Of a stretch of 53,763 nucleotides of DNA, positions 9,560-50,080 are shown piece after piece. This stretch comes from Chiloscyllium plagiosum (lineage: Eukaryota): positions 6,386,879-6,440,641 of the forward strand of contig NC_057757.1 in NCBI RefSeq assembly GCF_004010195.1, read 5' to 3'. Within the stretch, counting starts at the first letter, position 1, and every line of letters begins with the position of its first letter. Below the pieces are notes generated by a model that did no database searches, had not been told where the DNA came from, and was given only the letters and a program-made list of their open reading frames with translations. The position numbers were made by a program, and so were the translations under genes.

Positions 9560-10780
9560 GACTTATATTTAAAATATGGATGTAGGATATATACAACTAA
9601 TCACAGGGCCCTGTGTAGTGTTGTAGAACAGAGAGACCGAGATGTTCAGGAACATAATTCTTTGAAATTTGGGTCAAAGGCAGACAGTGTGGTTAAGAAG
9701 GTGTTTGTGACACTTGCCTTCATTGCTCAAGCCTTTGAATAAATGAGTTGGGATACCATTTTGAGGTTGTACAGGATGTTGGTGAGGCATCTTCTGGACT
9801 ACTGTGGGAATTCTGGTTGCCCTGTTATAGGAAGGATTTTATTAAGATGGAGAGGGTTCAGAAGAGATTTACCAGGATGTTTCTGGGACCAGAAGGTTTG
9901 AGTTATAAAGAGAGGCTGGACAGGCTGGGACTTCCTTCACTGCAGCGTAAGAGATTGAGGTTTATCAAATCATGAGGTAAGGTGAATAGCAAGGGTCTTT
10001 TCCCTAAGAGGGGTGGGGGTGGGGAGTCCAATACTAGGGAGCAAAGTTTTGAGGTGAGAGGAGAAAGAATTAAAAAGGACATGAGGGGCAACATTGTTTT
10101 ACACAAAGAGTGGCTAGTGTGTGGAATGAACTTTTGTTTCATTCATTCACGAGACAAAGGGCATCGTTGGCTAGGCCAGCATTTATTGTTCATCCCTAAT
10201 TGCCCCGAGAGTATTTAAATGTCAATCACATTGCTGTGGCTCTGGAGTCACTTGTAGGCTAGACCAGGTAAGGATGGCAGATTTCCTTCCCTAAAGGATA
10301 TTAGTAAACCCATGAGTTTTTCCAACAATTGACAATGGATTAATGGCCATTATTAGACTCTTAATTGCAGATTTCTTTTTCTATTTCAATTCAAATTCCA
10401 CAATCTGCCATGGCAGGAATTGAACGCAGGTCACCAGAACATTACCTAGCTCTCTGGATTAACAGTCCAGCAATAATACCAGTAGGCCATCAGCTCCCCT
10501 AAGACAGAGGAAGTGGTGGTACATTAGATTAGAGGAGCACCCGGAGGAAACCCACGCAGACACGGGGAGAATGTGTAAACTCCACACAGTCAGTCGCCTG
10601 AGTCGGGAATTGAACACTTACAGTATTTTAAAGAGATTTGGATAAGTACATGAATAGGAAAGGTTTGGAGGGCTATGGGCCCAACACAGGCAGGTGGGAC
10701 TAGTTTAGTTTGGGAACATGGTTGGCATGGATTGGTTGGACTGAAGGTTCTGTTTCCATGTAGTTTCCACTCTGTGACTA
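9560..10780 (+). mobile_element. CR1 3' fragment with nested SINE (10133-10500, minus strand) and an HE1 piece
   Basis: [29 protein letters not shown]; 3' UTR resumes at ~10616. Confidence 0.75.
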
Positions 10781-11094
10781 GTGTTGTTAAATAAACAGCA
10801 CAGTTTAGGTAACTGCTGAATTGAGACACTGCGGAAATTTTGACTACAGCAGCATTCTGTACTCTTTGTGACCCTTCATTCCTTATTTGAACAATGGCAA
10901 ACAAGTGTCTGTTAGATGTTAGTATAATCAGAAGAGTTGGTTCGAAGAAATTAAAGGATGCATTTTGCTAAAATCAGGGACAGGTATACCATATAAGTTA
11001 AATTGTATACGATGATCACATAAGTGAAATTGTCCATAGAGAAGGCATTGAGAAATTGTCTTGGTCATTGGACATTGGGTTTGGCTCCTTTTGG

Positions 11095-12084
11095 AATTCT
11101 GTGTTCAATTCTGATCTCCCTGCTATAGGGAAGATGTTGTTAAACTTGAAAGGGTTCAGAAAAGGAAATTGCCGGGGTTGGAGGGTTTGAGCTGTGAGAG
11201 AGGCTGAATAGGCTGGGGCTATTTTCCCTGGAGCATTGGAGGCTGAAGGGTGACCTTATAGAGGTTTATAAAACCATGAGGGGCATGGATATGGTGAATA
11301 GCCAAGGTCATTTTCTCAGGGTAGGGGAGTCCAAAACTAGGGGGTATAGGTTTAAGGTGAGAGTGGAAAGATTTAAAAGGAACTAAGGGGCAACATTTTC
11401 ATGCAGAGGATGGTGTGTGTATGGAATGAGGCGACAGAGGAAGTGATGGAGGCTGGTACAATTGCAACATTTAAAAAGCATCTGGATGGGTATATGAATA
11501 GGAAGGGTTTAGAGGGATTTGGGCCAAATGCTGGCAAATGGGACTACATTAATGGAAGGTGCTAGCTGTGAAGAGAGGTTGAGGAGGTTGGGTTTATTTT
11601 CATTAGAAAAAAGGAGATGCAGGGGGGACCTGATTGAGGTTTACAAAACCATGAAGGGTATAGACAGGGTGGATAGAGACAAGCTTTATTCCCAGGGTGA
11701 AGGATTCAATAACGAAAGGTCACACTTTCAAGGTGAGAGGTGGAAAGTTTAAGGGGGATACACGAGGCAAGTAATTCACGCAGAGGGTGGTGGGCGTTTG
11801 GAACGCGTTGCCAGCAGAGGTGGTAGAGGCAGGCATGGTAGATTCAGTTAAGATGCGTCTGAACAGATGTATGAGTAGGTGGAGAGTAGAAGGATACAGA
11901 TGCTTAGGAATTGACCGACAGGTTTAGACAGTACATTTGGATCGACTGAGGCTTGGAGGGCAGAAGGGCCTATTCCTGGGCTGTAAATTTTGTCTGTTCT
12001 TCTTTATTAATTTAGGATATTGGGATGACCTGGATGAATTGGACAGATAGGTCTGTTTCCGTGCTGTACACCTCTATGACTCTA
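11095..12084 (+). mobile_element. CR1 3' fragment with a second CR1 subfamily nested at 11554-12005
   Basis: Nested copy flanked by direct repeat ATTAAT (11548-11553 and 12006-12011); ORF 11519-11752 EERLRRLGLFSLEKRR. Confidence 0.8.
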
Positions 12085-12684
12085 CTGAGTTCAGAGCTGT
12101 GTGACAGCTAACTTCATTGGCTCAACTACATAGTATTTAATCCCCACCTCAACACTGGGTGCTCAATTGGTTAGGTGATGAGTTGTCATGCAGAATAAAA
12201 CCAACAGTGTGGGTTTGATCCCTTGTAACAGCTGCGGTAGTTCATGGAGGATTCACATGCTGTTGGATCCCTCAGCAATGGGAAGAAGCTACTGACCAGG
12301 AGCTGTTGCTGCTTCAGATTGAGACCCAAGCTGTTCTCTAGCTGTGGAAGTGCATCTTACATAAAACCCATTCAAATGCTTCAAAGGACTTTGGGAAAAA
12401 CAACAGATTGCTTGAATGCCATGGACACTCAGAGCATGCCTCACTTCAGGCAAATAGTCAAGTGCTTCACTTCACTGTGGATAAGTTTCCCTAATACTGC
12501 ATTCAAGAAGTCTTCTAGTGACTGATACCTCAGCTGTGCCTCATGCTTATTCATATTCATCAGAGAATGAATCATTGAAATCTCAGAGTGTTGTAAGGTT
12601 GGAGCAGGTTAAGGAGATTTGAAATGGTGTTATCAGGAAAGAGATTGAAAACAAGTATTAAGGTTTATAAATTAAGGAAAGACC

Positions 12685-13180
12685 ATAAGAAACAGGAACA
12701 GGGGTAGGCCATTTGGCACCTCTGGCCTGCTCCACCATTCAATAGGATCATGGTTGATCCAATATTCCTGCCCTTTTCCTGTAACCTTTGATTTCCCTTC
12801 TGACAACGAATCTACCCATTTCATCCTTAAATATACACAAGAACTCTGCCCCCACAGCTCCCTGAGGCAAGGAGTTCCAAAGTTTCACAACTCTCTCAGA
12901 GAAGAAATTCCTCCTCATGTCAGTCTTAAATTGGCGTCCCTTTATTTTTGAGACTGTTACCTCTGGTCCTAGACTCTCCCATGAGGGTAAACATTCTCTC
13001 AGCATTTACCCTCTCTAGCCCAATGAGAATCCTATGCTTCAACGAGATCACCTCCCATTCTTCTAAACTCCAACTAGAGGAGTCTCAAATTATTCAGGCT
13101 TTGCTCACATGACAATCCTTCTATACCACAGAGCATACAAAGTGAATCCTCTCTGAGCTGCCTCCAATATATTTCCTTAA
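12685..13180 (-). mobile_element. CR1 3' fragment
   Basis: ORF 12748-13005 MRRNFFSERVVKLWNSLPQ. Confidence 0.8.
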
Positions 13181-13987
13181 AGACAAAAGGCTGCTGAGCT
13201 GGGAGCTGTTATCAGTGAGCATAGGGGGCTGGACAATGGGATGCAGTGAGTCAGTACATGTGCAACAGAGGTTTGGTCGATTTCAAGCCCGAGGAGAATA
13301 TAAGGTGAGAGGCCAGGTGGGAGACAATCAAATGGTCAAGTCTAGAGGTGGTAAATGCATGGATAAGGGGTTCAACTGCAGATGAATTAAAGCAGAGGAA
13401 TGGGCAACTTATTTTTTTCTCAGTGACAATGCTAACCTTTCAAGAAGCCTTCTGCTCTCTCTCTCTGATGGGTTCTGACAAACTGTTGAACCCTCTATTC
13501 TCTCATCCCTCATGTGCTTGTTAAGTTTTCCCTAAAGTGCAGTTATAGATTTGTTCCAACCACTGCCTGCGATAGGAAGTTCCACATTTTGACCACTCTT
13601 TGGCTTTCTTGGTGACAACCTTGTACTGATGGACTCTAGCTATAACATTCTCCGCAATCTATAGCCACTCTGTCAAAACTGTTCATCATTTTAAAATCCT
13701 CTAATAGTTATCTACCACTGCCTTCTTTTACCAAAAGAGATTCAACTTGTTCATCCTTTCTTGCAATGTAAGCCCGTCCTTTGTAAATCTTCTGTGCACC
13801 CTCTCCAGAGGCTGTATTTCCTATTTACTAATACAGCTAGCAGAACTGCAACCCCAAAATCTAAATGTGGTCTAACCAAGGTTCAATATAATTTGAGCAC
13901 AACTTCACTGTTTTTCAATTCCATCCCTCTCAAAATGAAGCTTAATTTTATATGCTCTCACTAATCAATAAGCAACTTCTAGAGACC

Positions 13988-14941
13988 TGAAATAACTGCA
14001 CCGAGCCAATATTCCAGCACCAAGTCACCCATTATTTACGAGTGCACTGTACATGGGCTGTGACCAGCCGGATCAAAGCCAGTCCCTAAACCGAGGAGAC
14101 CTTCTGAATCTCCTGTTCATATTTTTTTAACACACTGACTATAGCACCAGCCAGCACAGAGCCAGTGCTCTAAACTGAGGAGACTCTAAATCTTCTGGTT
14201 ATTTTTTTTTTGAAAAATAAAACACAAACAAGAAAGAAACCCAAACGAAAAAGAAACAACTATCTTTCCTAAACAAGGTCGGGGGGGGGGGGGAGACAGA
14301 GACAAAGAAACTCCTCTTCTCCTCCTCAGTACCAGCAGTAACACACTGACTGTAGCATCTCCTGTTTATTTTGTTTTTTTTTAACATGTGAGACACAGTG
14401 AAAGACAACAAGTGTACGAATCTTTATTCAATTTCCACCACCAGGAAGAAAGGAAACACTCAAGTGGCCAGTGACAAGCAGTGCCCTCCTTAGAGGGCAA
14501 TGCTGTGTGATCGAAGAGTAAGGGATAGAGCACGGGTTAAATCATCTCCTGTTTATTTTTTTTCCTTTCCACACACTACCGCCTAACTGCGGTAGTGTTA
14601 TTTTTTTCCCCAGCACCCATGTTGTGTGTGTGCAAGTCTTTATTCAATATCCACCACCAGGAAGCAAAGAAACACCTGAGTGGCCAGTGACAAGCAGTGC
14701 CCTTCACATCAAATGGCAATGCTGCGTGGTCAAACAGTGAAGGGCAGGGCAGGGGTTAAATCAAAATAGAGTTGGAGGGGGAAATAATGCACTCCACTCC
14801 TTGCGGCACCCACCTCTCACTGAACACCTCATCTCCTGTTTATATCTGACAGCCAGGGCTCCCTGTTGGCCCAGGTTAACAAGCCCAATCGGGGAACTCA
14901 TAATTAATGAGATCCACTTGGCTATGATTCCAATTACTACA
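13988..14941 (-). mobile_element. Solo LTR carrying multiple insertions at its TATA box
   Basis: Minus strand TGTAGTAATT...GTTATTTCA (TG...CA), TATAAA at ~14839-14844, degenerate poly(A) signal near 14032; no clean TSD. Confidence 0.65.
14370..14829 (-). mobile_element. Two tandem 3' fragments of a Tx1-clade non-LTR retrotransposon
   Basis: Homologous segments ~14421-14543 and ~14637-14762, each with AATAAA and an A-tail on the minus strand; 14757-14829 translates VFSERWVPQGVECIISPSNSILI*, resembling a Tx1 ORF2 C-terminus. Confidence 0.7.
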
Positions 14942-16074
14942 TGATCAATGTATTTGTCCTCAAGATTCCTTTGTTCATCCACCTCACCTTTGACTTAATT
15001 TCCAATTTGTGCTACCAAAATGTATGAACTCACATTTATTTGCACTGATGCTTATTTACCGATTATGTGCCCATTCTATAAATAAGTAATTTGCTGCAAC
15101 CTTCCCCAGTATTGGCTATGACCACAACCACAAACAATTATGTTCTGGATTCCAAGTATAACTAGTTAATGTAAATTGTGAACAGCACTGGCTCCAGCAC
15201 ATCCATGTGGAACACCGCCTCTCATTTTCTGCCCCTCTAAATAATTGCTCGTAACTCCCAAGTTCTACTGTCTGCACTGAAGCCAGCCATTCTAATATTT
15301 GACCCCATCTCTGAATTCTCTGGTCTTATTCATTCATCTATTAAGGTGCGTTAAATACTATGGGCTGTGTTACCCAGACGCTCTCCCCTTTTGCTTCTTT
15401 TATCTGCTTGCCATTACTGGGTTCAATAGTAAATCTTCCCTTGTTGAACTTTTTACAAATGGTTTAGATAACATCCTGTGCACATAGTCGGAACTTCATT
15501 TCTTTTTCCCTGTTGCCTATCTCACTGGTTCAATGGATAACAAAGTAGTTCAGGGCTTCCTAAGCTACAGGTCCTGGTCCCTGTTTGGTTGAAGTTGAGA
15601 TTCTGGCTGTTGCTCCAAAAATGGCTGAAAGAGCTCAGACTGAATGTTGACAACTTTAAAACCTCTCATGTTTTTACTGATGGGGGTTGCGTGACCTAAT
15701 GAATCTTTAGGCTTGATCACTGCTACAATCTTTCACCTACTCTCAACCAATGAAAGCCACTTATTTCCTAGTAATCCCTATCATGACAGGTTCCTCCCAA
15801 CACATAATGCCTGCATCATTACAGACAGTGTGTGAATTAGTGTATAAACCCATTTTTAGTAAGATTTCCTCTCACTTTATGCTTAACCATCTCTTTAGAT
15901 TCCAATCCCATTATTTTAATTATCCCGTTCCCATCAACAACCGTTTTTGATTTTTTACTTTCCTATGATATCTTGCCCTTTCCAGTTAGGCTGCTTCTGT
16001 TTCCTGTAGACTCCTCCCCTCTCCCTTACCAACTTAAACTAACGAAATTCGGGGCAGGTTTATCCAAGATTATT

Positions 16075-16995
16075 GAGTCATTCAGCACAGGAACAGACCC
16101 TTCAGTTCAACCATTCCATGCTGAACATATACTAAACTAGTCCCACCTGCCTGCGCTTGGCCCATATCCCTCCAAACCTTTCCTATTCAGGTACTTATCT
16201 AAGTGTCTTTTAAACATTGTAATTGTGCCCACATTGAGTGCACTAATCAGGGGTAAATAGAGGATAATAAAGGAGGGGAATGGGCCTGGGTAGGTTACTC
16301 TTCAGAGGGTCAGTGTGGACTTGTTGGACTGAAGGGCCTGTTTCCACACTGTAGGGATTCTATGATCCACCACTTCCTCAGGAAATTCATTCCACATGTG
16401 AACCGCTCTCCATGTAAAAATTTTGTCCCTCATTTCTTTTAAATCTCTCTCCTCTCACTGCTTAGCCTTGAAATCCCCCATCCTATAGAAAAGACACCTA
16501 CCTATCTATACCCCTCATGATTTAAAAAACGTCCATAAGATCACATCTCGACCTCTTATGCTCCAGTGAAAAAGTCCCAGCCTTTCTTTACAACTCAAAC
16601 CTTTTGTACCCAGCAACATCCCGGTAAATTTTAAAAATTTCATTCATAGGACATGGATGTCACTGGGTAGGCCTGCATTTATTGCCCATCTCTAACTGCC
16701 CAAAGGGCAGTTAAGGGTCAACCACATTGGCTATGGAGTCACATGTAGGCCAGGCAATATAAGGATGGGAGTTTCCTTCCCTAATTGAGATTAGTGAACA
16801 GGATGGGTTTTTAACAGTAATCATTTCATGGTCGTCATGGGACACTTAATTCCAGATTTTTATTGAAGTCAAATTCCACCATTTGCCATGGTGTGATTCA
16901 AACCTCAGTCTCAGAATGTTAACTAGGTCTCTAGATTAACAATCCAGTGCCAATACCACTGGCCATTGCCTCCCCATAAATCTCTTCTGAATCCT
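16075..16995 (-). mobile_element. CR1 3' fragment with nested HE1 tail and SINE (16640-16975)
   Basis: Reverse complement of the CR1 3' region seen elsewhere in the window. Confidence 0.7.
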
Positions 16996-17136
16996 GAAAG
17001 GAATTCAACTCAAAGGCAAAGGAAATCCAAAATTTATTGTTGGTGACTACCAGACAGCGTTAGGATATCACAGATAATGACTGTGTTTTGCAGAAACTAT
17101 GACTGAGGGGTCTGATCAAATAATTTGCATGAACAA

Positions 17137-18419
17137 ACAGCTAATATGCAAATACATCAGCATGCAAAAATATCCAAGATATATTCAGAGTCTCCCATTT
17201 TAGTGAGGAACTCTCTTCCACAGAAATTAGTCACTATTGGGTCATTGAATTTATTCAAGGCAGAGTTAAAAAGATTTTTGATTGACAAAGGATTTGAGGA
17301 AAAGTGGTTAAAGCCACAATCAGATGAGCCATGATTTTACTGAACTTGCTGAGCAGGATTGTGAGGCTGAATAACCTTCTGATCCTACTTCTTATGCACC
17401 ACTTCCAACCTGATATCTACTGGGAAACCACAGAAAGGTCACAGCATAGAGGAAACTATTCAGCTCATTACATCCGTGCTGTCTCCCCGAAGCAGCATTT
17501 CACCAAGTGTCACTTGCTCACCTTCTGGCCCTGCACACCCTTCCTTTTCAGATACGGGTATCCCCTGCTTTTCGAATGTTCGCTTTACACAATTTCACTT
17601 TTACGAAAGACCTACATTAGTACTTGTTTTCACGAATCTGAAGAGGATTTTCGCTTTTACAAAACACAGCAATTCTTTTTCCCATATAAATCTTGCACAT
17701 TTACTTTATGCCATTTTTGGTTTCTGAAAGGTTCCCTAGGTACGCTCTATTTTTGGATAGCGGGGGGTATATGTAATAATCATGGGTACCAATGTGAATC
17801 AAAGACAGCAAACGTGGAACTGCTGCAGATCCATTAACTGATCGAATGTCAGAAACAGGGTCTAAAAAGCTGTATGGCCTACTCCTGATGCTGTTGCAAC
17901 AGCTCCCAAGTATCTAGAATTAATGTCATCTGTTTGAGTTGTCATGCATTATATCTTTTTTTTATAAACACCACTAGTCTGGTTGTAAGCCTGAATGGAA
18001 TGGCATGTAATGTGCTGTCAAAATTATGGCGAGGCTATCTGTCAACACTTGGATAGCCAGATGGTGAAGAAAAGAACTGCAGCTGAATCTTTTTTTTTCA
18101 CTTGCAAGCTTTTGTTTACAGAGAACACATTACAAATCATATACCTCTAACTGATGCCTCTTCCTGACTGCTCATTTTATTCCCCTCTCTATCCAGGAAT
18201 GGAGGGTTTGAGTTGTGGGGAGAGGCTGAGAAGTCTTTCACAGCTAATATGCAAATGCATCAGCATGCAAAAATATCCAAGGAATATTCAGAGTTTCCCA
18301 TTTTAGTGAGGAATTCTCTTCCAACAGAAATTAGTCAATATTGGGTCACTGGGTTTATTCAAGGCAGAGTTAAATAGATTTTTGATTGACACAGGTTTTG
18401 AGGATGACAGAAAAGTGGA
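17137..18419 (+). repeat. Dispersed ~165-180 bp duplication (17137-17300 and 18240-18419)
   Basis: Both copies start ACAGCTAATATGCAAAT.CATCAGCATGCAAAAATATCCAAG and align throughout. Confidence 0.85.
17555..17773. mobile_element. Degenerate Tc1/Tigger-like MITE
   Basis: TA-flanked, with imperfect TIRs CGGGTATCCCCTGCTTTTCGAA / TTTGGATAGCGGGGGGTATATG. Confidence 0.4.
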
Positions 18420-18830
18420 GTTGAAGGGTGACTTTATAGAGGTTTATAAAATCATGAGGGGCATGCTTAGGGTGAATAGGCAAGGTCCTTTCCCTTGACC
18501 ATATAGAGATTTTTAAATTATAAAGTATACATAAGGTGAATAACAGATGTATTTTCCTAGGGTGGGGGATTTCAAGACTCGGGGGGGACATTCTTAAGAT
18601 GCGAGGAGAAAGATTTTAAAAAGACACGAGAGGCATTTTTTTTTACACAGAGTGGTTCATGTGTGGAATGAACTTCCAGAGGAAGTTGTGGATGTGGGCA
18701 CAGTTACAATGTTTAAAAGACATTGGATAAGTACATGAAGAAGAAATGTTTGGAAGGATATGAACCAAGCATAGGCAGGTGGAACTAGTTTAATTTGGGA
18801 TTAAGGTCAGCATGGACTGGTTGGACCAAA
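18190..18830 (+). mobile_element. CR1 3' fragment interrupted by the duplicated segment
   Basis: GGAGGGTTTGAGTT...GAGAGGCTG, then GGTGACTTTATAGAGGTTTATAAAATCATGAGGGG after the insert. Confidence 0.75.
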
Positions 18831-20544
18831 GTGAACGTGCTTTTATTTCAACACCAAGTCTCCTGTGCTTTTTTGCATCTATTAACTACCACCACCAGTA
18901 AATCACCTGTATTTTCCAACTGATTAATTTACATGCAAAGCACACTGACAAGTTCAGCATGCTCATAAATATGTAAGCATTGATGAGTTTCATTAACCAA
19001 CACATAAATAACAAATAATGGATATTATATGACGTGTGATTATTTATGGACCCATACACAGCAACTTCAGGCAAAGGCCAATGCAAGAATAAATACAGAA
19101 ATCCAAACTGATAGCAAAATTTTGTGGGTTTACTAGTCGCTTAGCAAAAATGGTATCTCATGCCCACTTCACCATTGAAATGCATTCAGCTGTGCAAATA
19201 TAGATAAGAATTAAATCTCTCAATCAGAAAACTGGAGCTGGTTTGAAGTGATACAGAGATTCATTTCAGGTTTTGATACATTTAAATGACCTTGGACAAG
19301 CTGTCAGAGGTTCATTCAATAATTGTTAATTACGACCAATGTATCCCTCCGACATCAAAGACTAACTCTTAACATGTTTGCAATCTCATTCCTTCAAGTA
19401 CTAATTGTTGGTTATGTTAGAAGTGCATTTTTTCTGTTGATTTTGTTCCCAATGCAAACTTTATTTCCCTCCTTCTGCACCTATTTTGATAAATCAAGAT
19501 AACTAATTCCTTTTGAGTTCATGCATGGATTAGTTCTTTCAATGATATTAGCCTAGTACACAGCTCCTCAGATCCCAAATGCTGCATTTTCATTTCATCA
19601 GAGCAGATTCAGCTATCACTAAAGGTGAGGCCAATATTTCACATATATATATATTGCCTTTGATGTAAGATTTTACTCTCCTGTCCAAACTTTTATCAGA
19701 AGTAGGAAAAGCTCTTGGAAAAGTATTATGATGTTGAAGGAGGTAGTGGAGAAGCCAAGAGGTGGTGCAGTGCTGCTGTCAGTGTATAGTGGAAGCTTGT
19801 GCATGATCACACCTGTACATAGTGTCTGACAGCCAGAAATACTCCAAAATGCTTGGAAGCAATATTAAGTTAATTTGTCAGGCAATGGTTTAGATACGAT
19901 CCATTAGCTTAATAGATAGGAAATCCACATAATCCACGATGTGAAGGTGGCTCATTGATACAAGATGAAGAGACAGTTGGCAGAGAATGTGTTAATCCCG
20001 ATAGGTTATGGTAACAACACAGAATGTGTTAATCTCAGTTGTTTGTGAAACCATGTTGTTCTTGGGTTAAAGTGTTGAGAAACCTTTCCTTTGGTCATTT
20101 TTAAGTTTTCCTGATCCATCCTCCACTTAAAGGTGGTAGCTGCCAGATGAGGACTGACCCCATTCTCTGACGACTAGGTGAATTGGCCATACTAAATTGC
20201 CCGTAGTGTTAGGTAAGGGGTAAATGTAGGGGTATGGGTGGGTTTCGCTTCGGCGGGTCGGTGTGGACTTGTTGGGCCGAAGGGCCTGTTTCCACACTGT
20301 AATCTAATCTAAATCTAAATCTAAACCACTTTTCAAAGTTGTTTGAATACAGGTAAGGTGCCCAAGATGTCCACCGTTTAGTCTACTTCAGGGTGATTTC
20401 CCAAACACTTGCATAGATAGATGCAAGTCCAGCAATACAGTGACCTCAGAAGAGGTACACTTTATGTGATCTTTATCTTGTCTTGGTCTCTCACCGCTTA
20501 GAACTGCTTTATGCCTTTCCAGAGAGAGAATTTCAATTCTGCAC

Positions 20545-20897: not shown

Positions 20898-21770
20898 AAT
20901 GCAACACAGACAATTGCCTGAGGCAGGGATTGAACCCAGGTTCCTGGCACTGTGAGGCAGCAGTGCTAAACACTGAGCTACTGTGCTATCCCTGTATTAA
21001 GGTGCTTTTTTTTTACCTACCAAAAGACAAATTGATGACGAGGCACAAAGGCCAAAGATTATTCTGGGGAGCTAGGTGAAATTGATCCTGGAGATGCTGT
21101 AGTTACGTTTAGATGAGAAATCTATTTGATTTGATTTATTGTCACATCTTCATCAGTACGGTGAAATGTTTTGTTTTGCAAGTAGTACAGACAAACAAGA
21201 CAATGCACATCATAGGGTGTTTAAACAAAGCGAGGTGCATAAAAGCACGATCAACATTTGATTGAAATTGAAATTAGAGGTGCATTCAGCAGCCTTAGCT
21301 GGGAAGAAACTGTTGATGTGTGTTGTGTCTGTGAATGCAACACAGACAATTGCCTGAGGCAGGGATTGAACCCAGGTTCCTGGCACTGTGAGGCAGCAGT
21401 GCTAAACACTGAGCTACTGTGCTATCCCTGTATTAAGGTGCTTTTTTTTTACCTACCAAAAGACAAATTGATGACGAGGCACAAAGGCCAAAGATTACTC
21501 TGGGGAGCTAGGTGAAATTGATCCTGGAGATGCTGTAGTTATGTTTAGATGAGAAATCTATTTGATTTGATTTATTGTCACATCTTCATAAGTACGGTGA
21601 AATGTTTTGTTTTGCAAGCAGTACAGACAAATAAGACAATGCACATCATAGGGTGTTTAAACAAAGCGAGGTGCATAAAAGCAAGATCAACATTTGATTG
21701 AAATTGAAATTAGAGAGGTGCATTCAGCAGCCTTAGCTGGGAAGAAACTGTTGATGTGTGTGTGTCTGTG
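20898..21770 (+). repeat. Near-identical ~436 bp tandem duplication (20898-21333 and 21334-21770)
   Basis: Both copies start AATGCAACACAGACAATTGCCTGAGG and end TGTGTCTGTG; only a few differences. Confidence 0.92.
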
Positions 21771-41589: not shown

Positions 41590-44051
41590 CTTTGTTCCGG
41601 GTTTATTTCTCCCGCTCAGCATTTATCCCGGGTTTACTTCTCCCTCTGGGTATCTATCCCAGGTGTATTTCTCCCTCTGGGTATCTTCGCCGAGTGTATT
41701 TCTGCCTCTGGATATCTATCCGGGGTTTACTTCAGCCTCACAGCATTTACCAATGGTTTATTTCAGCCTCACAGCATTTACCACTAGTTTATTTCAGCCT
41801 CACAGCATTTATCATGGATCGATTTCTGTCTTTGGGTATTTATCATGGATTTATTTCTGCCTCTGGGCATTTATCCCGGGTGCATTTCTGCCTCTGGGTA
41901 TTTATCCCAGGTGTATTTTTCCCTCTCAGTATTTATCCCAGGTTTATTTCTCCCTCTGGGTATTTATCCCGGATGTATTTCTCCCTCTTGGTAATTATCC
42001 CGGGTTTATTTCTCCCTCTAGGTATCTATCCCGGGTGTATTTCTCCTTCTCGGTATCTATACTGGATGTTTTTCTCCCTCTTGGCATTTATCCCTTGTTT
42101 ATTTCACCCTCGCTGTAATTATCCTGGGGTTATTTCTACCTCATTCTATTTAAGCCGAGTTTATTTCCCCCTCTCTGTATTTATCCCGGGCTTATTTCTC
42201 CTCCTCGGTATTTATCCCAGGTGTATTTCTCCCTCTAGGTATTTATCCCAGGTGTATTTCTCCCTCTCGGTATTTATCCTGGGTTTATTTCCCCCTCTCG
42301 GTATTTATCCCACGTTTACTTCTCCCTCTCTGTATTTATCCCGGGTTTATTTCACCCTCTCGGTATTTATCCCGGGTGTATTTCTCCCTCCCTGTATTTA
42401 TCCCCGGTGTATTTCTCCCTCTTGGGATCTATCCCGGGTTTATTTCTCCCTCTCGGTATTTATCCCGGGTGTATTTCTTCCTCTTGATATTCACCCCGGG
42501 TTTATTTCTTCCTCTCGGTATTTATCCTGGGTTTAAATCCCCCGCTGGGTATTTATCCCGGGTGTATTTCTCCCTCTCTGGGTATTTATCCCAGGTGTAT
42601 TTCTCCCTCTCGGTATCTATCCCGGGTTTATTTCTCCCTCTCAGAATTTATCCCGGGTGTATTTCTCCCTCTCGGTATCTATCCCGGGTTTATTTCTCCC
42701 TCTCGGTATTTATCCCGGGTGTATTTCTCCCCCTCGGTATTTATCCCGGGTGTATTTCTCCCTCTCGGTATTTATCCCAGGTGTATGTCTCCCCCTCAAT
42801 ATTTATCCCGGGTGATTTCCCCCTCTCGGTATTTATCCCGGGTTTATTTCCTGTCTCGGTATTTATCCCGGGTTTATTTCTCCCTCTCTGTATTTATCCC
42901 AGGTGTATTTCTCCCTCTCGGTATTTATCCTGGGTTTATTTCCCCCTCTCGGTATTTATCCCACGTTTACTTCTCCCTCTCTGTATTTATCCCGGGTGTA
43001 TTTCTTCCTCTCGGTATTTATCCCGGGCTTATTTCCCCTCTCGGTATTTATCCCGGGTGTATTTCTCCCTCTCTGCATTTATCCTGGGTGTATTTCTCCC
43101 TCTCTGTATTTATCCCGGGTGTATTTCTCCCCGTCGGTATTTATCCCGGGTGTATTTCTTCCTCTCGGTATTTATCCCGGGCTTATTTCCCCTCCCTGTA
43201 TTTATCCCGGGTGTATTTCTCCCTCCCTGAATTTATCCCGGGTGTATTTCTCCCTCCCTGTATTTATCCCGGGTGTATTTCTCCCTCCCTGTATTTATCC
43301 TGGGTTTATTTCTCCCTCCCTGTATTTATCCCGGGTGTATTTCTCCCTCCCTGTATTTATCCCGGGTTTATTTCTCCCTCACCGTATTTATCCCCGGTGT
43401 ATTTCTCCCACTGGGTATTTATTACGGGTGTATTTCTCTCTCTCGGGATCTATCCCGGGTTTATTTCTCCCTCTCGGTATTTATCCCGGGCGTAATATCT
43501 TCCTCTAGGTATTTATCCCGGGTTTATTTCTTCCTCTAGGTATTTATCCCGGGTTTATTTCTTCCTCTTGGTATTTATCCTGGGTTTATTTCCCCCTCTC
43601 AGTATATATCCCGGGTGTATTTCTTCCTCTTGGTATTTATCCTGGGTTTATTTCCCCCTCTCAGTATATATCCCGGGTGTATTTCTTTCTCTTGGTATTT
43701 ATCCCGGGTGTATTCCTCCCCCTCGGTATTTATCCCGGTGTATTTCTCCCCCTCGGTATTTATCCTGGGTGTATTTCTCCCCCTCGGTATTTATCCCGGT
43801 TGTATTTCTCCCTCTCGGTATTTATCCCAGGTGTATTTCTCCCACTGGGTATTTATCCCGGGTGTATTCCTCCCCCTCGGTATTTATCCCGGGTGTATTT
43901 CTCCCCCTCGGTATTTATCCCGGTTGTATTTCTCCCTCTCGGTATTTATCCCGGGTGTATTTCTCCCCCTCGGTATTTATCCCGTGTTTATTTCCCCTTT
44001 CGGTATTTATCCTGGGTTTATTTCTCCCCCTCGGTATTTATCCCGGTTGTA
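41590..44051. repeat. Satellite/minisatellite with 31-bp unit TATTTATCCCGGGTGTATTTCTCCCTCTCGG
   Basis: Dozens of tandem units, each made of 15+16 bp related subunits; runs into the gap. Confidence 0.97.
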
Positions 44052-45694: not shown

Positions 45695-46599
45695 AGTGTA
45701 GACATTGTCAGTTTCAATGTCTGTGTGGAAGTCCATTGCTGTAGTAATGGGCACTAATCACTCTTCCTGAGGAGGACGATTACTGCAGCCCTGGCTGTTA
45801 GCAATTTGTATTGAGGCTGTATCAAACTGTTAGCATTTCTCTAAGAGGTGTTGGCTGGACCCAGACACTTTGGGGGCAATGTTCGTTACTCTTGTGTATT
45901 CTCTCCCCCACCCGCCTTAAACTAATCAGCGAGGTTGTGAGCGCATTGTGCTGGCAATCTGGTGGCCACAGGCAGTGTCTGTATCTGCTCTGCTGTGTGT
46001 CTCCATATTGTGATCCAGCGGCCATCTTGGGTGTCACGTTGGCCAACTGATGACTCAGCAGCCATCTTGGGTGTCCGTATGCCTCGTGTCACCCTGCCCT
46101 GTGCCATCTCCCTCTTCACCTCCTACCTCCCGCAGAGAGGGCAAAAGGGGGAATGGATGACTTATAGAATCCACGTGCTGGGGTTTACTGCTTACCAGAA
46201 ACTGAACTGGGCTTGCTGTGTGAACGCTGTGGCTACAAGAGCAGGTCGAAAGCTGGGAATCCTGCAGCAAGTAGCTCCTCGACTAGACAGGAGGGTGAGG
46301 GAATACTCTCCATCCAGGACACCATCCAGGACAAAGCAGCCCCCGCTTGATTGATGTCACATCCATAAGTGTCCACCACTGACGCTCAGGGGCAGCAGTG
46401 GATGCTGTCTACAAGATGCACTGCAGCAAATCAGCAAGGCTGCTTAGAGAGTATCCTAACCCTTTGGCACAGAGCTGAAGCAATACTGAGACACAGAGAA
46501 TCGTGGTCAGAACCATAAGACCACCAAGGGACCCCGCCCCCAGTGTGGAATTCTCTGCCGATAACCTAATCACAGGCCACGACTGAACAAGCCCTGGGA

Positions 46600-47072
46600 G
46601 TCCGGTTTCCTCCCACAATCCAGAGATGAACTAGAGAGTATAGGTTTAGGGTGAGAGGAAAAAGATTTAAAAGGGACCTAAGGGGCAACGTTTTCACGCA
46701 GAGGGTGGTATGTGTATGGAATGAGCTGCCAGAGGAAGTGGTGGAGGCTGGTACAATTGCAACATTTAAAAGGCACCTGGATGGGTATATGAATAGGAAG
46801 GGTTTGGAGGGATATGGGCCAGGTGCTGGCAAGTGGGACTAGACTGGGTTGGGATATCTGGACGGGTTGGACCGAAGAGTCTGTTTCTGTGCTGTACATC
46901 TCTATGACTGTATGTGCAGATTCGGGTGGATTGGCCATGCTGAGTTGCCCCGTAGTGTTCAGGGAAGTGTGGGTTAGGTGCATTCGTCAGGAGTATATGT
47001 AGAGTGTTAGGGGAATGGGTCCGAGTGGACTGGTTGGGCCAAGTGGCCTGTTTCCACACTGTAGGGATTCTG
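46600..47072 (+). mobile_element. HE1 SINE fragment with nested CR1 3' end (~46627-46909)
   Basis: TCCGGTTTCCTCCCACAATCC start; ORF 46651-46842 RGNVFTQRVVCVWNELPEEVV; SINE resumes at ATGTGCAG. Confidence 0.75.
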
Positions 47073-48704
47073 TGAGCTGTGGCTGGGCGAATTGACGAGA
47101 CTCCTCCTTCAGATGCTGGAGGCTCCCAGTGACCCTCGTTGAGGCCTCTTCCATTTGTAGGTTTCACTGTGATTTTGGGACACTTCCCCCTAACCCCGGA
47201 TGATGCTGACAGAAAATGAAATCCAAGCCCCACCCTCCCTCCTCCGTTCTCACTGGCAGGGCTGTGCGGGAGGTAGGGAGGGAGAGGGGAGTTGTGGCAG
47301 AGTTTCATAGATGGTTCCCTGTATGGTTCTGGCAGTGCCACACGACGTTACTTCATCACACCGAAACACAGAGCTTCCACCCTCCACTTCGAGCCTAGCC
47401 AGAGATAGCGAGATGGATCTGTTGAACTGGCCAGAGGGTGTGGAGACAGATTGTTTTTTTTACAACAAACCGGAAGCAGAGTGGGTCACGGGGCCCCAGT
47501 GACGTTTCGAAACGTGGAGGAATTGAGGAGCAACGAGTACAGGCCGAAATCAGGCCGGCAGCAGTGCGCTGGTTACATCATCCCGATGTCCTCATCATCC
47601 CCATGTTTAGACCCCGACATGGAGTTACGGAATGGACCTAGCCCCGAAAGAGGCCATTCAGCCCAGCCGATCTGCGCCAGTAGGTGGCTGGCCATCAGCT
47701 GGTCAGGGGCAATTAGGGATGGGCACTCAACACTCGCCAGCCATGCCCGTGTCCCACGTCTGGGCGGATCTTCCAGATTCCTCCCGCTCTAGAGAGTCTC
47801 CCCCCACATCCGGGTAGGGAGGCCTGTGGCTAACCTCAAAATGGCTTCCATAGCGAGGGAACCGCAATAGCCTTGTGTCTGGTCGGAAATGCCCCCCAAC
47901 TCTCTTTGCTTTTACCAACAGTGCATTTTGGGAGGGCAAAGGGTTTACACGGTGAATAGTCAGGCTGGAGGAAGTGGAGACGATCCGAGGAGATTAGTGT
48001 GTATATGTACACATTGTGGGATGCCACAGAGCTGTTGGCTAAGGTAGTACTGAAGGCATGTGGAATACTTGCCTTTGTCCTTCAGAGCAAGGAGGTAATT
48101 GGTCAGTTGTTTATATTCCGGAAGTTTCCGGGAGGTTGTTTCCTCCCGCAGCGAGATGGCGGTCACCAGGTTTTGGAGCGAGGGATTAGATGTCAGGGAC
48201 TAGCCCAGCTGCTCCTCCCAGCGGTGGGGGAGGTCTCGCTAGCGCCTCCCAACAACAGTGCAGCATTCCCTCCGTACAAGCACGGGCAGCGCCAGCCTGC
48301 TTTCATATGGCACTCGGAGGCAGAGCTCAAACCTCGGGCCTTCTGACTCCGCTCTGAGGCGAAGGTGTGCACGCCCTGAGCGTCGCCACAGTGTGGGAGC
48401 AAGCCGTTCAGCCCATCGAGCCCACGCCAACCCTCCAAAGAGTGATGGGAGCCAGGCCATTGGATCTGTCGGCTCAGGAAGGGGTGGGAGCTTCTCCTAG
48501 CGATGCTGCCTTACCCACCCCCCACCTTCAGGTGTGTGTGGGTGGGTGGCTGATTCACACAGCGTCTTTAACAATAGTCAGACGGGGAGATGTCAGTCCC
48601 ACTCGTCTGAGGGGTTGGTTTCGGGATCGAGCAGCAGCTGAGGTTTCGGGGCCGTGGGGTGGTGGGTGTGGAGTCCAGACCTCGGGGACTGGGCAGCTCA
48701 AAGC

Positions 48705-49188
48705 ACAGAAGATGTTGTGAAACTTGAAAGGGTTCAGAAAAGATTTACAAGGATGTTGCCAAGGTTGGAGGGTTTGAGCTACAGGGAGAGGCTGAACAGG
48801 CTGGGGCTGTTTTCCCTGGAGCGTCGGAGGCTGAGGGGTGACCTTGTAGAGGTTTACAAAATCATGAGAGGCATGAATAGGATAAATAGACAAAGTCTTT
48901 TCCCTGGGATGGGGGAGTGCAGAACTAGCAGGCATCGGTTTAGGGTGGGAGGGGAAAGATATAAGAGACCTAAGGGGTAACGTTTTCACACAGAGGGTGG
49001 TATGTGTATGGAATGAGCTGCCAGAGGAAGTGGAGGCTGGTACAATTACAGCATTTAAAATGAATAGGAAGGGTTTGGAGGGGTATGGGTCGGGTGCTGG
49101 CAGGTGGGACTAGTTTGGGTTGGGATATCTGGTCGGCATGGACGGGTTGGACCGAATGGTCTGTTTCTGTGCTGTACATCTCAATGAC
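48705..49188 (+). mobile_element. Well-preserved CR1 3' fragment
   Basis: [45 protein letters not shown]. Confidence 0.9.
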
Positions 49189-49355
49189 TGTTTAACTGTG
49201 GAGTGATGGGAGTCAGGCCAGGCAAGACTCCAGGACTGGAGCAGAACCGAGATCTCTCAGGGTCAGTCGGACTGGAGGAGGCTGCCGAGACAGGGAGGGG
49301 AATTGGGGGCCTGAGGAGGGTAGCTGAGGAAGATAAGGCAGAACACTGTGCTGTG

Positions 49356-49386
<31 letters not shown>

Positions 49387-50080
49387 CCTCCCTCTCAGCG
49401 CTGCCTTGTGTAACCCGCTTTCCGTAATTCATTCACTGAATATGTGGGCCCAGCCATCAGTACTCTCTAGGTCTGGCCAAGTGACTCCCTGGGCAGTTGA
49501 GCCGCAGTGGTCTGGAGTCACGTGTAGGCCAGACTGGGTAAGAGTGGCTGTTTCCCTCCTTAAAGGATGTTGGTGAACCAGGTGGGGTTTTCACAGGAGT
49601 CTTGTGGTCACTATCATCCCAGGCTGACACATTACCTTTTGGATTTATCCGCAGAACTGAATCAGCAATCCCCCTTACACGGCTGCAGTGGGATTCCAAT
49701 CCCCATTACCTGCACCATTTACGAGTAACACCCCCACCCTGATGACGGCACACGTCTTGCTGTTCTGTTCATAGCACCATTTTAAAAGGCTGAGTGATGA
49801 GGGCCTTTGCTACTCCGAGTCCTCAGTGTCTCAGTCAGAGCTGCCTTGTGCAGAATCCTTTGTAACCCCATCGGGGAGCAGTATTGGCCCTCTGATTTGA
49901 GACTACTCGCTTGCCCGCTCAGTCAGAGTTACACTGTAACCTGCTGGGAAAATGGGCTGGCAACAGAGAAATGTCTGAGCTGGACCAGAGCTGGAAGTGT
50001 GCTAGTACCTCGGGAGGTCAGTACGCACGGAGCCGTGGACCAACCTGAAAGCCAGAGAGAGTTTCCGTTCATATAATTAC

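Follow-up and report, generated by a model that had tools for sequence, protein, structure and literature searches.

Chiloscyllium plagiosum carries a LINE family of the Tx1 clade which is probably inserted by target-primed reverse transcription (TPRT) at one site, within a predicted TATA box in the LTR of a Ty3/Gypsy element, where a duplication of ~14 bp rebuilds the site and where the LTR promoter is likely used for the LINE's own transcription. We assign this reading a probability of roughly three in four. That the family targets one site in the Gypsy LTR is very nearly certain, while promoter borrowing, taken alone and judged from sequence features, is evenly balanced.

Insertion stack in a solo LTR

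The window (the whole stretch of 53,763 nucleotides that was analysed) contains, on the minus strand at 13988-14941, a solo LTR interrupted by a series of insertions. The initial annotation had rightly recognised a solo LTR as the host, although its true extent is wider than was then supposed. In minus-strand order, the 5' (U3) part of the LTR (14844-14941) starts with TGT at 14941, bears CCAAT/ATTGG boxes and leads into the first copy of the 14-bp target (14830-14843), which lies in the predicted TATA box. There follow a Tx1 3' end of 273 bp (14557-14829), comprising an ORF2 C-terminus, 3' UTR, AATAAA signal (14639-14644), hairpin and A-tail; a target copy identical to the first (14543-14556); a second Tx1 3' end of 173 bp (14370-14542), which consists of 3' UTR alone, was polyadenylated upstream of the hairpin and is 81% identical to the first; and a further identical target copy (14356-14369). 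Beyond these lie insert B (14203-14355; 153 bp, 5'-truncated and A-tailed), which is a piece of a type-a Tx1 head and 5' UTR and is homologous to the 5' UTR of the long copy L108 and its relatives; a variant target copy (14189-14202) of the form that precedes type-a heads; insert A (14121-14188; 68 bp), a type-a head that ends in an A-tail and resembles, by homology, the R region of the LTR; and the last target copy (14107-14120), which runs on into R. The R-U5 part of the host (13988-14106) contains an initiator-like word and a decayed poly(A) signal, and ends with TCA at 13988.

Most of what had been described from the letters alone survived closer inspection. The motif does occur five times, at 14108, 14190 (with two mismatches), 14357, 14544 and 14831, and each of the first four copies is followed on the plus strand by a T-run and an insert, such that every insert terminates in an A-run when read on the minus strand. 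The ORF2 C-terminus is present (the frame ends ERWVPQGVECIISPSNSILI, with its stop codon at 14756-14758), as are the two homologous 3' ends and the hairpin near the tail of the first. The latter (14573-14598, minus strand) folds as a 10-bp stem with a z-score of -3.5 in an 81-nt piece and would form the 3'-terminal stem-loop of the Tx1 RNA; the word spanning its 3' arm occurs 5,510 times in the genome. Inserts were correctly placed after the first four copies, but the two at 14121-14188 and 14203-14355, then left anonymous, are A-tailed pieces of the head and 5' UTR of the Tx1 family. At a tolerance of two mismatches the window contains eight motif matches against 2.17 expected, a number attained in 0/100 shuffles, and five of the eight are packed into 740 bp.

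The number of events recorded here may be three instead of four, since the copy at 14189 matches the variant usual before type-a heads. This degenerate copy may have been brought in together with inserts A and B, which perhaps represent one read-through or transduction event. Insert A aligns to the R region of another locus, L171, with a score of 76, which is better than its score of 61 against the local R region.

Another sample of this organism yielded contigs that match 13700-14157 and 14789-15300, and thus both ends of the stack, which argues against an assembly error. In a second organism, contigs bridge the junctions between LTR and insert A and between the variant target and insert B, and contigs of a third organism have the LTR end in place; each of these records covers part of the stack. 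Judged from these contigs, the stack is genuine and, in part at least, predates the split between two organisms.

Other features of the window include a 436-bp unit in two tandem copies, 97% alike (20898-21770), a 31-bp minisatellite of ~79 copies with strong strand bias (41597-44051), and a segment of 52-56% GC (46000-50000), possibly a CpG island or gene start, in a window of otherwise 40-44% GC. Many dispersed repeats, 60-90% alike and in both orientations, occupy 10000-19000; we take them to resemble the 3' ends of CR1-type LINEs.

Identity of the LINE and its host

The 273-bp insert returned 2,964 first-look candidates across the 3.56-Gb genome, and walking upstream from such 3' ends led to long copies with ORF1, endonuclease and reverse transcriptase (RT). 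ORF2 of the long copy L110 matches the Pfam families RVT_1 (4.8e-30) and Exo_endo_phos (6.2e-13), and shares 50% identity with ORF2 of Xenopus Tx1 over 892 aligned residues which include the APE endonuclease and RT (50-51% across comparisons). The match to human L1 ORF2 is much weaker (E 1.5e-59), a rough contrast only, as this value comes from a different program. The highest identities among the named protein matches were to stingray (66%) and horn shark (64%), over part of the query; the nearest relatives include sturgeon and turtle proteins as well. Upstream of ORF2, one of the seven frames scanned gave a zf-CCHC match (E 0.0019) too weak to reach the curated cut-off. Poly(A) tails, target site duplications (TSDs) and 5' truncation, the hallmarks of Tx1-type elements, are all found, and the 5' UTR is long, GC-rich and internally repeated. 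By protein comparison the family thus belongs to the Tx1 clade, in agreement with the initial assignment.

The host LTR is ~230 bp long (empty copies measure 218-237 bp) and has TG...CA ends. Twelve LTRs were examined for 5-bp flanking duplications; both ends were found for 10, with four perfect duplications and four matching at 4 of 5 positions, while the 5-mers flanking the window's own LTR match at 3/5. An exact 22-mer from the U3-TATA part occurs 1,512 times in the genome. At L065, two LTRs flank an interior of ~4.8 kb in which a match to RT_RNaseH_2 (1.2e-17) is followed by one to rve (1.5e-4, below cut-off), and L183 contains a match to Integrase_H2C2 (1.8e-8); Pfam matches to the Gypsy interior came from 3/55 fragments scanned. 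With RNase H lying before integrase inside a pair of LTRs, the order is that of Ty3/Gypsy elements, which, together with the TG...CA ends, bears out the claim that the host is an LTR. No env was seen in the decayed ~4.8-kb interior of L065, where the integrase end reaches the purine tract.

The target word contains TATAAA, CCAAT/ATTGG boxes lie upstream of it at -46 or -26, and an initiator-like A is found at +30 from the TATA start in 10/15 empty LTRs. On these grounds we predict that the target word is the working TATA box of the LTR.

Genome-wide target specificity

The target word preceded by A7 has 1,284 exact occurrences in the genome, as against 19 for a permuted word of the same composition. 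Similarly, 1,055 of the 5,510 exact copies of the Tx1 3'-end word have the exact target word 5-35 nt beyond them, while a permuted word of the same composition is so placed in 25; the resulting fraction of 19% is a lower bound, because tails are long and sites have decayed. The 29 nearest other copies of the window's 3' end were scored with a weight matrix, using the 95th percentile of shuffles as threshold. Sixteen exceeded it, 19 had LTR sequence on the proper side, 22 had one or the other and seven had neither; A-runs elsewhere in the window exceeded the same threshold in 2/79 cases, and an earlier matrix had given 16/29 versus 8/79. The 3' end is visible in 16 of 20 endonuclease-bearing copies, and 11/16 of these are on target by matrix. 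Tx1 ends chosen by position, the first 30 on contig C1, form 17 clusters; LTR sequence lies on the proper side of 23/30, and 17 match the motif with at most one mismatch, against 1.1 in shuffles. We place no weight on the count at up to two mismatches (28/30), given its high background of 10.5 in shuffles.

Kojima (2015) regards a family as target-specific when one sequence type makes up >20% of its flanks; LTR sequence makes up 19/29 and 23/30 here. The initial annotation had proposed a Tx1 family directed at the promoter of an LTR retroelement, a proposal which unrelated flanks around other copies would have undermined. Its targeting part is upheld by the sharing of target word or LTR by 22/29 nearest copies and by the genome-wide counts (1,055 versus 25), and its promoter part is a prediction from sequence motifs. 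Targeting is strong, yet not absolute, in that 7/29 of the nearest copies have neither motif nor LTR nearby.

Occupancy and independence of insertions

Among the first 30 exact LTR matches on contig C1, 21 were called empty by script and two more, with small deletions, by eye. The remaining seven are occupied, all at the same site and with duplications of 11-16 bp. Of the 29 LTRs nearest to that of the window, 14 are interrupted just past the target and 15 continue into R. Tx1 and passenger alignments in loci picked by their LTRs lie without exception on the LTR strand (51/51). Measured over 419 junctions, the length shared with empty-LTR sequence is most often 14 bp and tails off towards ~30 bp, and the stack in the window holds three identical 14-bp copies, in keeping with the suggestion that a TSD of this size rebuilds the target at each insertion. 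Micro-units at L188, L209, L016, L004 and L252 consist of the target and 24-30 bp of R, with an A-run immediately behind; they are either very short transcripts of R or insertions that are almost empty and flanked by long duplications.

Several observations bear on whether these insertions arose separately. The two Tx1 ends of the window are differently truncated, each has a relative of ~94% identity elsewhere in the genome, and at 81% mutual identity they did not arise by local duplication, the alternative that the initial annotation had raised. Public contigs display many truncation points, all joined at target base 14833. At L065 the stacks differ between the two LTRs, and at L180 the 5' LTR is empty while the 3' LTR is occupied, which indicates that Tx1 insertion came after Gypsy integration. 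Counts of units nevertheless overstate the number of events, since read-through moves neighbouring units together; at L103, for example, transduced R-U5 and ~55 bp of donor flank precede the A-tail and duplication.

5' heads, leader and passengers

Full-length Tx1 copies begin with sequence homologous to the R region of the LTR. Heads at L048 and L103 align over ~85 bp to one LTR subtype and type-a heads over ~72 bp to another, and at L264, L267 and L268 the head of one subtype stands in front of the cut-down head of the other. Typed heads reside in LTRs of their own subtype in 15 cases and of the other in one, with 18 undetermined; in at least one case, L276, a full-length head begins at ~+12 inside an LTR of the other subtype. 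Full-length heads in general begin at ~+12, upstream of the start predicted at +30. Rfam searches of six head-bearing loci gave no match at the gathering score, and hence no U1 or U2 snRNA in these heads.

In one subfamily, every one of the 30 copies that were found by means of a 5' UTR query, which favours that subfamily, carries a leader, namely the element's own ORF2 end and 3' UTR placed before a shortened head. The leader stops ~20 nt before AATAAA, and so is without a poly(A) signal, and begins 73-651 nt upstream of the unique 5' UTR. Since each of these copies carries sequence upstream of its head, their RNAs began upstream of it as well.

A passenger of 1.8-2.0 kb, which we label TY, has a type-a head, internal tandem repeats and ~2,450 candidates. 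Seven full-length copies of 20 were measured (L276, L278, L279, L288, L290, L291 and L293); they start at the target with an R head and contain no ATG frame longer than 146 codons. The target word follows the TY tail in 13/20. By these sequence characters TY is a separate non-coding retroposon. Its identification as the inter-ORF region of Tx1 was rejected, there being no alignment there. Some ~6.5 kb to the left of the window there is another LTR copy that bears a TY end (L184:3061-3436, within G000:C48:6376900-6386878), and at L109:6370-7190 a Tx1 RT region is joined directly to a TY tail, possibly as a hybrid non-autonomous element. An A-tailed SINE with extra 3' flank occupies the Tx1 target at L059:1613-1960 and probably at L037:1620-1960, implying mobilisation in trans. 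Rfam and ARAGORN did not recognise this SINE, which we take to be of tRNA type and similar to shark HE1.

Mechanism and alternative readings

In the mechanism that we propose, the APE endonuclease would read the sequence and place a nick in the bottom strand where the duplication has its left edge, and the A-tail would prime synthesis there. The top strand would be cut ~14 bp downstream, sometimes up to ~30 bp, between the TATA box and the predicted start, so that the target word is rebuilt on both sides of the insert and stacks can grow. Transcription would begin at, or upstream of, the rebuilt TATA box, while the R-derived head would restore the initiator and supply homology for a clean 5' junction. 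A full-length copy with an R-like head, lying behind U3 in the same orientation, would thereby have a complete core promoter ahead of it. The leader, having no poly(A) signal, might let a transcript started upstream, from the LTR, run into the full-length copy, and could be lost piecemeal. Heads at ~+12 precede the predicted start at +30, and a simple model of starts at the initiator consequently needs either long duplications or RNA starts further upstream. From a poly(A) single-cell run, of which ~2% was sampled, 424 reads fell on 3' ends of the family, 90% of them continuing unlike the locus; such reads represent 3' ends only, may be internally primed and speak for the family rather than for the copy in the window.

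An extended form of this reading describes a promoter parasite, which cuts the TATA box of the LTR, takes over its promoter, has repeatedly captured R as its 5' end, has made itself an expendable leader out of its own 3' end without the poly(A) signal, sustains a 1.9-kb non-coding passenger bearing the same head and disables any Gypsy copy that it enters. We offer it tentatively, at a little under even odds.

The foremost competitor of the proposed mechanism accepts the targeting but places the promoter within the element, with R heads and leader as by-products of read-through which contribute, at most, homology at the 5' junction. This we consider a real contender, if a less probable one. Heads do begin upstream of the predicted initiator, read-through and 3' transduction do occur, and the long, GC-rich and repetitive 5' UTR could house such a promoter; in addition, target sequence in R1 transcripts has been proposed to anneal and so to yield precise junctions (PMC2718515). 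Such a promoter is harder to reconcile with the 30/30 leader-bearing copies, whose RNA began upstream of the 5' UTR, and with heads drawn from at least two LTR subtypes, whose stacking in L264, L267 and L268 suggests repeated gain.

The proposed reading of sequence by the endonuclease must also be set against tethering, in which the site would be chosen through a host factor bound at the LTR promoter, such as a TATA-binding complex. The coincidence of the site with the predicted TATA box, the location of most matches within LTRs and the tolerance of the cut position for several mismatches in the word would all fit. We nonetheless think tethering unlikely, given that stacks of many units go on using duplicated sites further downstream, well away from U3, and that the endonuclease of the related Xenopus Tx1L nicks its target specifically in vitro (PMC1950540). 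At L280 (1-1500, oriented), moreover, Tx1 and TY have inserted one after another at a word resembling the target, in a locus where no LTR was detected, which suggests that it is the sequence which is read, and not the LTR context.

A loose, L1-like preference for T-rich nick sites, of which the LTR TATA box would be just one, is very improbable. The inferred nick does fall at a T-rich/A junction, as in L1, and about a quarter of the near copies are off target, but the bases beyond the A-run matter, as the permuted-word counts given above (1,284 versus 19 and 1,055 versus 25) largely refute such a preference, and A-runs elsewhere in the window score at just 2/79 and 8/79. More improbable still is the spread of one old insertion in a master LTR by Gypsy replication, or growth of the stack by local tandem duplication, which the duplicated blocks in a few stacks (L139/L132 and L204/L205, sharing junctions) would fit, but which is refuted as a general explanation by the differing LTRs of single elements, the variation of contents and truncation points between loci, the occupation of several LTR subtypes, and the closer relatives that the window's two 81%-alike ends have elsewhere.

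Comparison with known systems

Insertion of Tx1 elements into another transposon, LTR elements included, is a known phenomenon. The nearest parallel, which is absent from the Tx1 targets named in the initial annotation, is found in crocodilians, where the families Tx1-8_Crp and Tx1-4_AMi favour particular LTR retrotransposons, tandem copies of SINEU-3 on either side of a TSD record sequential insertions, and non-autonomous passengers share the target, with transcription from flanking target sequence having been proposed (Kojima 2015, PMC4494074). The shark family resembles these in its LTR preference, its sequential insertion around a TSD and its passengers on the same target (PMC4494074). The likeness is one of description, as the main text of that account gives no position inside the LTR element, whereas the shark site is defined to the base pair (PMC4494074). 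The 5' heads differ as well, being derived from U1/U2 snRNA in the crocodilian Tx1-4_AMi and from R of the target LTR in the shark (PMC4494074). Tx1L of Xenopus laevis, with its 50% identity in ORF2, likewise inserts site-specifically into another transposon (PMC6719617, PMC1950540); its target is the DNA transposon Tx1D, unlike the predicted LTR promoter site of the shark family.

R1 and R2 also use a fixed site in a multicopy transcribed target and rely on target-derived sequence and read-through (PMC2718515, PMC4494074). Ancestral R1 had a 14-bp TSD (PMC2718515), and R2 is co-transcribed with its 28S rRNA gene target (cited in PMC4494074). Both belong to other clades, and their target is a host 28S rRNA gene in an RNA polymerase I unit, as opposed to the predicted polymerase II-type promoter of a retroelement. 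The HeT-A and TART elements of Drosophila are Jockey-type elements. Their arrays run head to tail, with the 3' sequence of one element standing before the 5' end of the next and buffering it, and the non-terminal repeats of TART are comparable to the leader of the shark Tx1 (PMC5537684). As they reside at chromosome ends and carry a promoter in their own 3' UTR, the parallel is limited to a similar way of working (PMC5537684).

The shark family goes beyond this known kind in its exact site within a predicted promoter, in having heads derived from the LTR, and in its leader and its non-coding passenger. The literature covered describes neither a LINE in the TATA box of an LTR, nor heads derived from R, nor a Tx1 family of this sort in sharks, and offers only the account of Kojima (2015) on crocodilians; with Repbase Reports and most subscription journals outside this coverage, that is weak evidence of absence.

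Implications

The family adds a target defined to the base pair to the short list of those for APE-type LINEs. With more than 1,000 natural junctions, the position of the nick and the mismatches tolerated can be read off, which makes sequence recognition by the endonuclease directly testable and may be of use in targeted insertion. If promoter borrowing is true, it would answer, for one family, the question posed by Kojima (2015) about the transcription of target-specific Tx1 elements and of the passengers that go with them. In these LTRs one transposon is seen colonising, and probably silencing, another.
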